The notes below the pieces were generated by a model, which worked only from the letters and a program-made list of their open reading frames with translations, was not told the DNA's origin and did not search any database. DNA of 63,996 bases, counting the filler, from Porpidia crustulata (Eukaryota), in assembly GCA_964255105.1 (NCBI GenBank). It is 16 parts of 16 records of this genome, joined end to end, with 100 filler letters (N's around TTAATTAATTAA, not from the genome) between each part and the next. Parts side by side here need not be neighbours in the genome. Positions count along the whole stretch, not along the records: positions 40,474 to 44,403 come from CAXUWE010002198.1; 15 more parts are not named here. The stretch is one strand, 5' to 3'. A program made the position numbers and the translations under genes. This document shows, in pieces, positions 16,987-44,204 of this stretch; position 1 is the stretch's first letter, and each line of letters begins with the position of its first letter.

Positions 16987-17093
16987 TACTCGTTCCCACC
17001 CCTCATCGGACCACCTAGCCTAGGGCTAGGGTCTAAAAACAAGCAGTTATAAATTAGACCCTAACCCTAGGTAAGGTGGTCCGATGAGGAGTA
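16987..17093. mobile_element. Foldback variant of the TTAGGG-containing MITE family
   Basis: Begins TACTCGTTCCCACCCC like the 42712 copy. Arms 17001-17036 and 17054-17089 are 36-bp inverted repeats with 3 mismatches containing TAGGGCTAGGG / CCCTAACCCTA. Ends GAGTA. Confidence 0.7.
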
Positions 17094-17934
17094 AATTGTC
17101 CCAGCAAGGGTTAGGGCTACTATCTCCTACAGGGCTAGCTGTCTCGTTCAGGTCAAAAGTTACACTAGTACCAGTAATCAGCGAAGCTTTGCGGCTGCCA
17201 TACTCACATCTTGCCGCTCCTATCTCCAAGGTATTTCTTTCTGGTTTTCATTCTCGGTTTTCAACCCCTACGCCTTGCTTTACAGTGCACTCACTTCATC
17301 AAGTTCAATAATAATCTACTTTGATTTTTGGCTTTGGTACTAGGGGCGCTTCATATATAAGCGTTTGAATACTCGCAAGGATTCTTGTTCACCTGCCGCT
17401 CCCCCTCAGTCTGGTCTACTCGCTGGGTGATTTAGTCAATGGTCTGCTCACTGAAATGCTCCGTGAAGGGCGGTCGCAATACCTGATAATCTTTACAGAG
17501 CGTCAAATTCTTGCACATCTTTGGCATGGATGGCAGGCTGTGAGATGAGAGCCATTTCAGGCCTGCAATAGTATGTTCAAAAAACAAGCCAGTCAATGAC
17601 TCGACCGCTTGCCAGATCTTAGGTACAAGGCGAAGCGCAAGGCCATAATGGAGTGGTGGAGATGTCGCCTTGGTGACGCAAATGCGCATCAGATGTATTG
17701 CGGAAATACAATGACCAGTATGATCGATGTGCTTCTTGCTCTAAACCTAATCATTAAAGGACGCAGCGACTATCAGAAGATACAGAGTATAAGAAGAACC
17801 TGCCACCACGGTGTTCCGCAGAAAAAACTACGAATCACTTGCCTGTTGACTTACTTTACGAAGTGATCAATGACTGTTTACCAATCCTAGCAACGTTGCT
17901 CCCAGCAAGATTAACGATTCTCACCAGTGTCATC

Positions 17935-37575: not shown

Positions 37576-39390
37576 GTTTGCCTTAAGTCGAGACGCCAAT
37601 GGGGACTATTACGTAGCGACGGTTCGGTAGGAGAATTAAACAAACGATATGCAAGCTTGACGGGAGAGGAGATTTAGTCTCTTGAAGCACAGGGCAGCCA
37701 GAAGAGAACAATTGTTTCGACGTAGACATGTCGAAGGCAGACGAAACGTAAGGAGATATAGAGAATATATGATATATTCTACGCAATAACAATGTTTGTC
37801 CTAGAGGTTGATCTAGAATGGAGGGCTGATTCTAGGAGGCCGAGCGTTAGGAAGATTATTCGCTACCTTTTTTGAGACTTGTTGGCTAGGTCTTAGCGGC
37901 TTCCATAACCAGTTTCGAAGGAGTGCAAGGTGGGCTGATTCCCTGAGCTAATCTGCATGAAAATCAAGAGGATCTCTGGACATATTCCCGGCCTCTGAAA
38001 CGTCCCTGAAGTAGACAGTGGAGACTGCAATCGGTACAAGCATATTCCAACATCTTCCCAGACTTTCAACACACTGCCACGAGCCGTTGTCATCGCCGTT
38101 TATACTGCTGCCGTTCTGGTCCAAGCTCATCAGTGCAAATAGTTGCTGAAATGTGTTATTTCCGAGGAGTACTAAAGGCTAGAACACTATGCGATATTGG
38201 TAGAATTGCTGTATCTGTCAGGCTTGGTACCAAAATGCTGCGGTACTGACAATACTGGATGAGCGTGAAATCTCTAGGCGAGTTGGTGATGTTTGAAGTC
38301 TCAGATGCAAGGCCAGCAGTAGTGCACATCCTGGTCCTTCTCGGATCCTGACAACGAGAGCTATTGTAAACCTGTGCTGGAGACTAGGCCAATCACTAGA
38401 TCCGTGCCACTGCCATTTGCGCGCCTGTGCGCTTACGGGAAGAAGTCATTTCCAAATTCTCCGATTCGCCATTTCCCCACAGAAACGCTCCTTGGTCGTG
38501 CTCGGATCTCCGGGCGACACAGGATTCGTGAGGAAGAGCATAGACCATGTAGTTTGCATCTGCATGCAAAGCAGGGCCGGACGCGCTTCTGCGATGTGGT
38601 AAGACGCATCTTCAACCACCAAACCAGGCACAATCTGACCCGAGCCGTTCCACGTCATTGTGTTGGACGCCCTCCCAATCTCGAGCCTCCAATTCTGCGA
38701 TCATGTCTGCAATGCAACTGCCAGGTCGACGATGGGTCGGATCGGATGCTTTCTGGCTCACGGTTGTGAAGCCGTTGATGCCACTTTGTCATCCTCGCAA
38801 CCTCACTATCATCTATCTCTTTCACTATTATTGTTATAGCCGCATGCACCAACGGTCGCTTCAGTCCTGCGATCGTAGAATCTCTGCAAATGTTGGGTCT
38901 GAACAGTGATGACCCTTGTGTGCTTCAGGAAACATACACAAAGCACGACGTAGAGCATTTCCTGATTTATGGAGCTCCCTCGATCCACAGAGGTATGCAT
39001 CGGATTCGATGGCCATCCTGAGAATAGTCTCAATGCTCGACTGCCTGCTGAACACTGCTTTATCGTATGCAGTTTCAAAGAGTCAAAGCGAGGTTCAACA
39101 AAGGCTTGAACGAACGAAGACTGGCTAAACTTTGTGACCCTAACCCTAGGTGTGCTGGCTCATTGCTGGGTAAATTATCCAAGGAGCAACTTTGTAGAAT
39201 ACAGTCTTATCACTACATCTCTCATTACCTGCGATCCCCGAACGCCTACGAAACAAAGATCCAGCTTCACGCTAGACGGATCTTGATAAATGCAAGGAAT
39301 CGAAATCGGCTTCAAAGCGGTCACTTTGAAAGTATGAGCGGATCATCAGTCTATTACATAACACAAGATCTATCGTCCACAATAAACCAC

Positions 39391-39523
39391 TACTCGTTCT
39401 CACCCCCCAACGGTCCGCTCCACCTAGGGTTAGGGTAATACCATAGGGTTAGGGTTAGATAGACTAATTTTCACTAGCGCGGACCGCTGGGGGGTGCGGA
39501 CCGTTGGGAGGTGTGAATGAGTA
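39391..39523. mobile_element. 133-bp MITE, TA-flanked, with TTAGGG-rich core
   Basis: TACTCGTTCTCACCCCCCAACGGTCCGC ... GCGGACCGTTGGGAGGTGTGAATGAGTA (28-bp IR, 3 mismatches). An extra 17-bp subterminal repeat on the right. 60-bp core with TAGGGTTAGGG twice. Confidence 0.85.
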
Positions 39524-41417: not shown

Positions 41418-42518
41418 CTACTCCATATGGCCAACAGCCCCTTTGTCGTCTTTCCCAGCTTCCGCGCCCCAACCCCACGGTATCCAACTGCTCCCCCCGC
41501 CAGCTTTGCCAGCCTTGGCACTCCGGGGTGCTTCATCCCGGTCAATGGTATCGAATTCGGACTCGCTCCCGCGCTTGCGCAAGCCCTCGCCGTACGCGAG
41601 GTCATCCCCCAACCTGCGTTCCACGTCCCTGCGGATCGCGTCTTCGCTCGCTGGTCCTCCCTGGTTGCCTAGCTCCGAGGCCTCGCGGTCCAGAGCGCTC
41701 AGCAGTACCCGCAGCTTCTCGCGCTGCGTGGCTAGGAACGTCATTTTCTCGTCGTTGCTTTCGATGCCCCTGGGGACCAGTGTCCCGCTGGAGCTCATGT
41801 GTGCGCCGTTGCCGGTCCGGGACGTTTGGCCGGTGGCGGCGCTGAGGAGGCCGTAGAAGTCCTGCACGGCGCCCATGGTTGGTGCGGCGGCCGCGCGGGC
41901 GGAGGGGACGTAGAATCGGCTCAGGAGGCTTTGGGCGTAGCTGCCGCCTTCCTTGGGGGGGAAGCTCTGCGCTTTCGGCTGCATTCCCAGCACGTTCTGT
42001 TTCACGTAGTCGATTGCGCGTTTGAGCCACTGCAGTCCAGCAGCCTTGGCGCGGTCGTGGCCTCTAGAAATCATCTCGTCGATCTCCGCTTCGTGCTGTG
42101 CCAGGAACGGGTGGACGTAGGAGGTGTAGAGGAGCCGGGCGCCTTGGGTTTGAGGGAGCACGAGATAGGAGAGGAGGGCGAGGCGGAAGAGGGAGTAGAA
42201 GGGGAGCCAGGAGAGGATGAACCAGGTCCAGGATTCGGCGAGGGTGAAGAGGGAGATGACGACCCAGTACATGAGCCATGGGGTAAGCTGGGCGGGGTCG
42301 GAGGTTTGGAGGGCTTTGTAGGAGGCGAAGATAGGGAAGAGGATTGTGATGAGGGAGCTGGAGATGATACGTTAGTTAATAATTTCCTATAAATATTAGG
42401 TTTGGTTCTGCGGAATGACAGAGATGATGTAATTTCGTGATGAGGATACGGAAGGGTTGTAAGAGAGCGGGGTGGGGCAAGCGTACGAGAGCAGGTTGGG
42501 AATGATGTCGAAGAACAT
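41418..42518 (-). CDS. HVA22/TB2-DP1 (Yop1/REEP-like) membrane protein (2 exons)
   Basis: MFFDIIPNLLS / ILFPIFASYKAL..DPAQLTPWLMYWVV...WLPFYSLFRL...LPQTQGARLLY..YVHPFL..HEAEID. Confidence 0.9.
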
Positions 42519-42711: not shown

Positions 42712-42844
42712 TACTCGTTCCCACCCCCAAACGGTCCGCGCTAATTAAGATTAGTCAATATAACCCTAACCCTACGCTGCAGCCCTAACCCTAGGTAGGG
42801 CGGACTGTTTGGGGGTGCGGACCGTTTGGGGGTGGGAACGAGTA
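42712..42844. mobile_element. 133-bp MITE, TA-flanked, perfect 28-bp TIR, CCCTAA-rich core
   Basis: TACTCGTTCCCACCCCCAAACGGTCCGC ... GCGGACCGTTTGGGGGTGGGAACGAGTA is a perfect IR. Extra 17-bp repeat GCGGACTGTTTGGGGGT. Core contains TAACCCTAACCCTA and CCCTAACCCTA. Confidence 0.9.
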
Positions 42845-43173: not shown

Positions 43174-44204
43174 ATGTGCATAGCGCTCATATCTACAGCT
43201 CATCCCGATTACGCCTTGATCTTGATAGACAATCGTGATGTATGCTAACCAAGCTATTGCTATCCCAGCTATACTGAGAAAAACAACAGGAGTACCTCAG
43301 TCGTCCGACAGCTCCAGCAGCATGGTGGCCTCCTCCCAACAGCCAAGTAATAGCAGCCCACGACCTTCTCCGCAATGTGCGCGGCACATGGCTCGGTGTC
43401 ACCAAACAAGGTCGGGTTGCCGTTCTGACAAATTTCCATGAAGAAGGCCAAGTGGTACAAGAAGCCAGAAGTCGGGGGGCTATGGTCAATGCATTTTTGA
43501 CCCAAGATCCTGGCAGACCTGAAAACACGCATGAGTTTATCACGCATCTTATTGAAGCCGAAGGTGTGAAAGGCGTCGGCGGCTTCAGCCTCGTATGCGG
43601 AAAAGCAGGCCATCCGCTTGCGATTGTGTCGAATCGCACGCCTACCGTTGAGGGCGTATCCTGGATCGCTGGGACAAGAGGCGAAACTGTAGGCCTAAGC
43701 AACGCTGCCTTTGGAGACCGCTCCTGGCCCAAAGTCTTGATGGGCGAAGAACTCATGTATTCCGTAATCAAAAAAAGCTTCGAGCGCAAAGACTCGAAAG
43801 CCTTACTGATCGAGGAACTCCTGCGCGTCCTAAGCGTCGACACCATGCCCAGCAGACGTCGCGGCCAAACATGGACCTCCTACGTCGAAGCGCTGCGCCA
43901 CAGCATCTTCGTCCCCGCGATCGGTGGCGCGGGTATGGATGGTCTAAGTGCCGATAACATCGCCGCCGCCGCGAAGGGCAAGAACCAGCATGTCCACGTC
44001 AGCAGTAAGGATGAGATAGCGATGCATAAGGGCGGTCTCACGGGTAAATACGGGACGCAGAAGCAAACCGTCGTGATGGTGGATCACCAAGGACATGTGA
44101 CATTTGTGGAGAGAACGCTATACGATGAGGAGGGACGAGAGATTGTTGACAGTGAACGCGATAGGATTTTCGAATTCGACATCGAGGGATGGGTGAATAC
44201 ATAG
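43174..44204 (+). CDS. TANGO2: TANGO2/NRDE family protein (2 exons)
   Basis: MCIALISTAHPDYALILIDNRD|E (the NRDE motif is split by an intron), GTWLGVTKQGRVAVLTNF, SRGAMVNAFL, YGTQKQTVV. Confidence 0.9.

Follow-up and report, generated by a model that had tools for sequence, protein, structure and literature searches.

The three short elements found in a window of Porpidia crustulata DNA are, with near certainty, members of a large and diversified family of non-autonomous MITEs of the pogo/Fot1 type. As a type of element they are not unusual, but they carry a remarkable conserved site of the kind recognised by telomere-binding proteins, which is held in phase with the TIR. The window, i.e. the whole stretch of 63,996 nucleotides that was analysed, consists of 16 contigs of about 4 kb each with N-spacers between them, and the assembly that was searched comprises 22.9 Mb in 2447 contigs. 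Fungal-type families are present among the genes of the window, and of the named matches to its NPL4 protein the best are from lichen-forming Lecanoromycetes (76-79% identity), so that the host is probably a lichen fungus. The 15 spacers of the form N44-12mer-N44 (window 3963-60525), which head the output of the repeat finder, are contig joins and not biology.

The three copies lie at 42712-42844 (copy A), 39391-39523 (copy B) and 16987-17093 (copy C) on the separate contigs C2198, C2197 and C2191. Their positions, their lengths (133, 133 and 107 bp), the TA at both termini of every copy and the location on three unlinked contigs agree with what an earlier note on this DNA had reported. The figure of 133 bp counts both TA duplications, the element proper being 129 bp long with 26-bp TIRs. 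Copy A belongs to a young subfamily and has counterparts with 100% identity over 123 bp at four other loci of the assembly. The layout of 28+60+17+28 bp described previously holds: the left TA and 26-bp TIR (42712-42739, plus strand) match the right end, once that is reverse-complemented, at 28 of 28 positions and include a 17-bp sub-repeat (42723-42739, plus strand), the presumed transposase site. An extra 17-bp TIR sub-repeat is at 42800-42816 and the right 26-bp TIR with its TA at 42817-42844, both on the minus strand. Two telomere-like blocks are found in the core, each reading TAGGGTTAGGG on the minus strand. Block 1 (42783-42793), a candidate site of the Tbf1/Tay1 type, is joined to the inner sub-repeat by a 6-nt linker, and block 2 (42764-42774) is likely its tandem duplicate at a distance of 19 bp. 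At the far end, the position with the same 23-nt offset (42746-42756, plus strand) may hold a further block that has decayed by G-to-A changes. Canonical RIP acts in a CpA/TpG context, and we do not claim it as the cause of this decay since the altered G's lie outside that context.

Copy B is an older relative of copy A whose core has the opposite orientation, with blocks on the plus strand at 39425-39435 and 39444-39454. The previously noted match of 47 out of 60 core positions is reproduced when the core of copy B is reverse-complemented, but in the same orientation the two cores agree at 19 out of 60 positions. Because the cores match only after this reversal, the extra 17-mer is on opposite sides of the core in the two copies, and the common length of 133 bp is the product of two different 2+1 configurations. 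The foldback character of copy C is evident from its opposed blocks (17021-17031 on the plus and 17059-17069 on the minus strand), which define a subfamily; its right TIR is short by about 10 nt. A further block-like remnant abuts copy C on the right (17094-17135). The window also contains a fourth, decayed half-copy of another subfamily (39138-39177, minus strand), made up of a block, a 6-nt linker and a 17-nt sub-repeat, which resembles locus L103 by eye.

With respect to genes, copy A is flanked by the start codons of an HVA22/Yop1-family gene (41418-42518, minus strand) and a TANGO2 gene (43174-44204, plus strand), at distances of about 193 bp and 330 bp respectively, and it therefore lies in a divergent promoter. 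Copy C is upstream of a PTPA-family ORF that starts about 108 bp downstream of it; all three start codons were judged by eye. Copy B sits 3' of a Med16-type gene.

The family is by no means limited to the window. With copy A as the query, the 133-bp element gave 103 matches across dozens of contigs of the assembly; the copies have unrelated flanks and lengths of 97, 116, 133 and 150 bp, with steps of 17 among the latter three. A strict TIR pattern detected 132 ends in the assembly as opposed to none with a reversed control, and 100 of the 132 are among the matches listed. The retrieved loci contain 115 distinct ends that yield 81 distinct element sequences after identical sequences are collapsed. 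Of these 81, 54 are two-ended, 14 have a single end and the other 13 are truncated where a contig or locus stops; copies in this catalogue are not independent of each other. Two of the 54 two-ended sequences were mis-calls and were dropped, leaving 52 elements in the later counts of blocks, G-quadruplex patterns and decay. The two-ended copies are non-coding, bounded by TIRs and span 86-150 bp. The earlier note had expected a high copy number: there are many copies indeed, but the number is moderate, i.e. about 90 elements with strict ends and, by extrapolation, perhaps 200-250 in total in the 22.9 Mb. Single strands of the elements give hairpin z-scores of -8 to -11. Structured RNA was considered and dropped, as an Rfam scan of the element gave just two matches, both below threshold.

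The subfamilies are distinguished by the core of the sub-repeat, and the most common unit is a 97-bp element with a single block. Locus L020 represents subfamily A in this 97-bp form, and subfamily A has been amplified recently. Evidence for the TA duplication comes from one site, where an older MITE in L009 is split by a nested copy of 116 bp: the paralogues of the interrupted element in L053 and L081 are ungapped at this point and have a single TA, so the empty counterparts are paralogous rather than orthologous. Among sequencing runs screened for empty sites in other strains, a single one contains the locus, and it is probably the source. A 3-bp target duplication is ruled out by the variable bases outside the TA. 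The TA duplication, the 17-bp sub-repeats of the TIRs and the clade of the partner transposase support the proposed assignment to non-autonomous DNA transposons of the pogo/Fot1 type.

Several individual loci deserve mention. A 150-bp copy (L005:1489-1662) is centred in a perfect 12-bp flanking palindrome, and in L057 (~400-520) two different subfamilies adjoin with one TA common to both, which suggests insertion into the target duplication of another element. Loci L089 (C107), L145 (C1491) and L137 (at the end of C2291) represent a non-coding foldback subfamily of about 450-490 bp with TIRs of the family A type and inverted arms of about 180 bp. Finally, L140 (region of C343:5203) is an element of about 300 bp with a block at each end and two to three sub-repeats per TIR, probably a derivative by internal deletion.

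A partner transposase is encoded by a relative of these elements. A search for DDE transposase ORFs between copies of the same TIR had been suggested earlier, and locus L034 does carry the same kind of end, namely a family-type left end (recognised by a looser TIR pattern, not by the strict one) and a block with one mismatch, with an ATG at nt 122. The single ORF of L034 contains HTH_psq, HTH_Tnp_Tc5 and DDE_1 domains, in which the invariant D292 and D328 have a spacing of 35 (DD35D-type). This copy is defective in comparison to the proteins P0002 and P0044: it is internally deleted, most of the C-terminus is gone, and the first catalytic Asp, present in P0002, is replaced. No recognisable right TIR was seen in L034. 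In L143 and L138 the same N-terminus begins after a block, and in all three loci the block precedes the ATG of the transposase by about 55-80 nt. The offset of the block is 26 in the long elements versus 23 in the MITEs. Since the long, coding members have the block in their ends as well, we consider it a part of the transposon end and not a captured cargo.

One long-element end is common to five contig ends, as expected of a collapsed repeat. An intact autonomous copy with the exact TIR of subfamily A was not found among 7 DDE_1, 6 DDE_3, 4 HTH_Tnp_Tc5 and 10 protein matches, in a fragmented assembly in which long ends break at contig edges. A loose end beyond L137 matches the non-coding foldback type of about 470 bp that has no transposase, and no joints were seen (one sequencing run). 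Other transposases were rejected as partners: six of the seven DDE_1 loci (all but L034), all six DDE_3 loci and the HTH_Tnp_Tc5 matches L146 and L147 are without a family-type end. Among the DDE_3 elements, L048:1285-2753, L049:607-1894 and L051:1266-2752 are unrelated Tc1-type elements, 1.3-1.5 kb long, whose TIRs measure 22-35 bp and which lack the block. A segment of about 170 bp, with TG...CA where both ends are visible and solo-LTR-like by eye, is nested repeatedly in AT-rich relics of long elements (L135, L141, L144 and L139) and in the flank of L048.

Of the 54 two-ended elements, found by the TIR pattern alone, 45 contain the exact sequence TAGGGYTAGGG, and 52 contain it within one mismatch. 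Relative to the TIR sub-repeat, 46 out of 102 anchored ends have the block at an offset of 23 nt, which amounts to about one per element, and an exact block at this offset occurs in 43 out of 52 elements. The 11-14-nt TAGGGTTAGGGYT block stands at a fixed distance of 6 nt from the inner sub-repeat, while the sequences of the linker and the spacer turn over. When 33 non-redundant elements are compared pairwise, the mean identity is the same in the sub-repeat and in the block (0.73 each), as against 0.37 in the 6-nt linker and 0.35 in the next 24 nt of spacer; 7 of the 33 rows of this TIR-anchored comparison are mis-anchored, which lowers the score of the block. A linker that is free in sequence and fixed in length suggests that a protein site is held in phase with that of the transposase, and we hold it probable that the block is a site under selection for protein binding. 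The two-block form seen in copies A and B, with a spacing of 19 bp in 15 cases, has the look of a single block duplicated in tandem.

The earlier description of the core as two (CCCTAA)-repeat blocks at fixed spacing is correct in that the blocks are conserved far above the rest of the core, but they are not (TTAGGG)n arrays. The longest perfect run in telomere phase is 14 nt in 34 of the 52 elements and 15 nt at most, TTAGGGTTAGGG and CCCTAACCCTAA are absent from the window, and no triple TTAGGG exists in the assembly. The idea of a telomeric-repeat cargo is thus not upheld, as a block contains about two units of TTAGGG, itself no more than the presumed telomere repeat of this host given the lack of triple repeats. 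A role as G-quadruplex former is not supported either: the strict pattern (four G3 runs, loops of 1-7 nt) occurs in none of the 52 elements, and a long-loop pattern (loops up to 12) in 14 of them.

We put the chance at about even that the conserved block is a site for a host factor, Tbf1 or Tay1, that has a role in cis in transposition or in transposase expression. The block can be read as two overlapping TAGGGYT sites and fits aRCCCTaa, the Tbf1 site consensus as quoted in a paper (PMC3919577) that cites the primary work. Among 72 copies of the block, which are not independent, 52 have T at position 12 and 20 have C, and none has a purine there; position 6 is T in 69 out of 72. This is the pattern predicted by two overlapping aRCCCTaa sites. 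The host has a Tbf1 orthologue with TRFH and Myb domains (L260), whose TRF and Myb domains match solved Tbf1 chains. Several TTAGGG binders, including homologues of Tbf1, Tbf2 and Tay1, are described for Neurospora in the relevant part of PMC4650311. According to the section on these factors in PMC12449055, Teb1 of S. pombe requires two repeat units, and Tbf1 is active at promoters; we therefore count Tay1 as a second candidate. A paper on a promoter insert in Zymoseptoria has a figure legend in which TTAGGG is labelled a Tbf1 element, and its accessible text draws no link to MITE ends (PMC5656749). Taken as a prediction from sequence, the binder would be a Myb-type TTAGGG-binding factor of the host, of which Tbf1 fits best and Tay1 is possible.

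A mechanism along these lines can be outlined. The transposase, judging from what is known of the family, would bind the 17-bp sub-repeats and move the element by cut-and-paste into TA. A Myb-type TTAGGG-binding factor of the host would occupy the two overlapping sites of the block and might help in cis, either by opening the chromatin or by aiding the assembly of the transpososome beside the TIR. In coding members the block, about 55-80 nt upstream of the ATG, probably serves the transposase promoter too. The spreading of such sites into host promoters would be a by-product.

The relatives of the partner transposase in other assemblies bear on this proposal. From 80 metagenome loci of the transposase clade, 36 with clear TIRs were compared. 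Among the 15 full-length relatives with an identity of at least 39.8%, 12 have an ARCCCTA/TAGGGYT site 26-80 nt from an end, and none of 21 more distant relatives does; the background is 45 out of 3125 windows. The full TAGGGYTAGGG occurs five times in 304 kb of relative loci, and all five occurrences adjoin a TIR. However, the ARCCCTA site is absent from L164/L215, which are the closest full-length relatives (50% identity, same TACTCGT end), and from L186, so that members of the clade can do without it. The 12 positive relatives represent about seven families and require two changes on a quick tree, hence they are not independent. Their half-sites are arranged in tandem in either direction, including the one opposite to the host elements, or as palindromes. 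This variable arrangement speaks for a protein site that tolerates either orientation rather than for a telomere seed. The latter role had been suggested for the elements, and we do not support it, as relatives differ in how the site is oriented towards the element end. Several points count against the proposal, namely the missing site in the closest relatives, the interdependence of the positives, the defects of L034, the failure to find an intact master of subfamily A, and the offset of 26 in long elements as opposed to 23 in MITEs.

The abundance of the motif in the genome was estimated as well. The assembly contains 346 occurrences of TAGGGTTAGGG against 38 of a control, and the first 62 of the 346 matches were sampled. 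Of these, 14 were already in catalogued elements, and 30 of the other 48 are element-borne according to a classifier (28 out of 46 after merging two duplicates) whose null rate is 3 out of 300. At least 44 of the 62 sampled blocks are thus within elements, and about 9 more are remnant-like by eye, so that the excess of TAGGGTTAGGG over the control is largely element-borne. In line with the proposal that these elements spread such sites through intergenic DNA, most of the interstitial TAGGGTTAGGG sites lie in them. The small sample of genes beside 'free' blocks (11 ORFs) has no common class and no link to ribosomal proteins or histones. As a more tentative extension, which we would rate as possible but not as our expectation, the clade may have co-opted Tbf1 (or Tay1) as a transposition cofactor in cis that is phased to the transposase site; the MITEs would then supply about 70-85% of the interstitial double TTAGGG sites, and some of these might be retained by the host once inserted, so that the set of targets of the factor would be rewired.

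Four other explanations were considered. According to the first one, these are ordinary MITEs, and the block was inherited from the ends of the parent, where it was a host-factor site in the promoter of the transposase gene, and is idle in the MITEs. Such an origin would agree with the place of the block upstream of the ATG in L034, L143 and L138 and with the decay of the far-end position in the MITEs; however, the block has remained at 0.73 with the linker and spacer down to 0.35-0.37, and the MITE subfamilies have core features in common, with an offset of 23, as opposed to 26 in the long ends. The relatives point both ways, as the L161/L163/L212 family has the site at its 5' end only, whereas L162, L170, L179 and L182 have it at the 3' end too. 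On balance we find an idle, inherited block unlikely, if still worth serious attention.

Secondly, the block could be an additional binding site of the transposase itself, one of whose HTH domains would read half-sites of the form ACCC(C)T; the likeness to telomeres would then be a coincidence. The transposase is a conceivable binder because the sub-repeat opens with ACCCC(T), a C-run followed by T like the half-site of the block, and both the fixed distance between block and sub-repeat and the confinement of the site to one transposase clade are in line with this. We still think it rather unlikely, given that the block is constant though the sub-repeat cores vary by subfamily, that the half-sites of relatives are in tandem in either direction or palindromic, and that the closest transposases, L164/L215, do without the site. 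The T/C freedom at position 12, moreover, fits the known consensus of the host factor.

Thirdly, the host might select blocks after insertion and use the MITE-borne Tbf1-type sites as promoter or boundary elements. The G sites of the block deviate in 9 out of 294 cases, and comparable C sites of the unselected TIR arm, outside CpG and CpA, in 21 out of 260 (p=0.013 by Fisher's test), but A:T sites are alike in the two (8 out of 196 versus 10 out of 260, p=1.0), and the test favours the block, which was taken as the best of several candidates, with 3 elements unanchored and TIR differences that may predate insertion. An earlier and cruder comparison of decay gave 12 out of 572 against about 5% per arm. 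Even together with the position of copies A and C at 100-330 bp from predicted start codons and the large share of genomic blocks in elements, these figures amount to a hint only of post-insertion selection on the block, and we regard host selection as the source of its conservation as improbable.

A cargo role of the blocks, be it as telomere seeds or as G-quadruplex formers, is very improbable, since their identity to TTAGGG, given as the telomere repeat of Neurospora in the pertinent passage of PMC4650311, and the long-loop pattern in 14 of 52 elements are outweighed by perfect repeats of no more than 15 nt, the complete lack of the strict pattern and of a triple repeat in the whole assembly, and an orientation to the element end that differs between the host elements and relatives.

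The proposed host-factor site next to a transposase site can be compared to what is known of other systems. The present family shares with the Fot1/pogo elements Tan1, Aft1 and Trem the TA duplication and the TIRs with 17-bp direct repeats, of which there are two per TIR in the descriptions given in PMC2836289, and a partner transposase with HTH_psq, a CENP-B-type HTH and a catalytic domain of DD35D spacing, 35 being the D-D spacing listed for pogo groups including Fot1 in the relevant section of PMC7325037. The differences are as follows. The Porpidia partner is in a clade separate from the Tan1-like proteins (about 36% identity; SH-aLRT 95 on a quick tree), and the full-length members of its clade have about 600-700 aa, unlike Fot1/pogo. 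The ends start with CTCG/GAAG and not with ACGT, and a TAGGGYT site adjoins the TIR. A host protein near a transposase site is known from the prokaryotic Tn10/IS10, where an IHF site beside the outside end is biochemically proven. The arrangement proposed here is similar in as much as the putative host-protein site is at a fixed spacing from the transposase site, and in our case it is deduced from conservation.

Among fungal MITEs, EFT of Epichloe festucae (PMC3227409) and the TA-MITEs of Zymoseptoria (PMC4522978) are likewise described, in the parts of these papers that deal with the elements, as short, non-coding, TA-flanked and multi-copy, with degenerate subfamilies and relic parents. They are set apart here by description and not by sequence: the accessible text on EFT does not mention TTAGGG or CCCTAA (PMC3227409), and the sole mention of TTAGGG in that of the Zymoseptoria paper refers to a retroelement (PMC4522978). 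Plant MITEs that amplify E2F, bZIP60, PIF3 and TCP15/23 motifs resemble the present family in that one family supplies a large share of the motif of one host factor, as summarised in PMC5950925. Unlike in those plant elements, the motif here is fungal, of Myb/Tbf1 type, phased to the TIR and common to coding members, subfamilies and relatives in other assemblies. The ciliate TBE elements are also of the Tc1/mariner superfamily with telomere-like sequence at their ends, but in the account of PMC7325037 their repeats are at the TIR tips, and they have three ORFs and are of the DD34E type, whereas the motif described here is internal to the TIR, has about two units and goes with a single-ORF, pogo-type DD35D partner. 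In the literature searched, mostly open-access texts and with Dfam/Repbase outside its scope, neither this family nor any TTAGGG block beside the TIR of a fungal pogo element is described.

If a host factor does bind the block, the family would make it possible to test how a cut-and-paste transposon of a eukaryote uses a chromatin or telomere factor of the host at its ends, and this would help to explain why some MITEs out-amplify their parents. In a genome of this kind most of the short interstitial TTAGGG motifs are carried by transposons, and studies of motifs, telomeres or ChIP data in lichen fungi need to take this into account.
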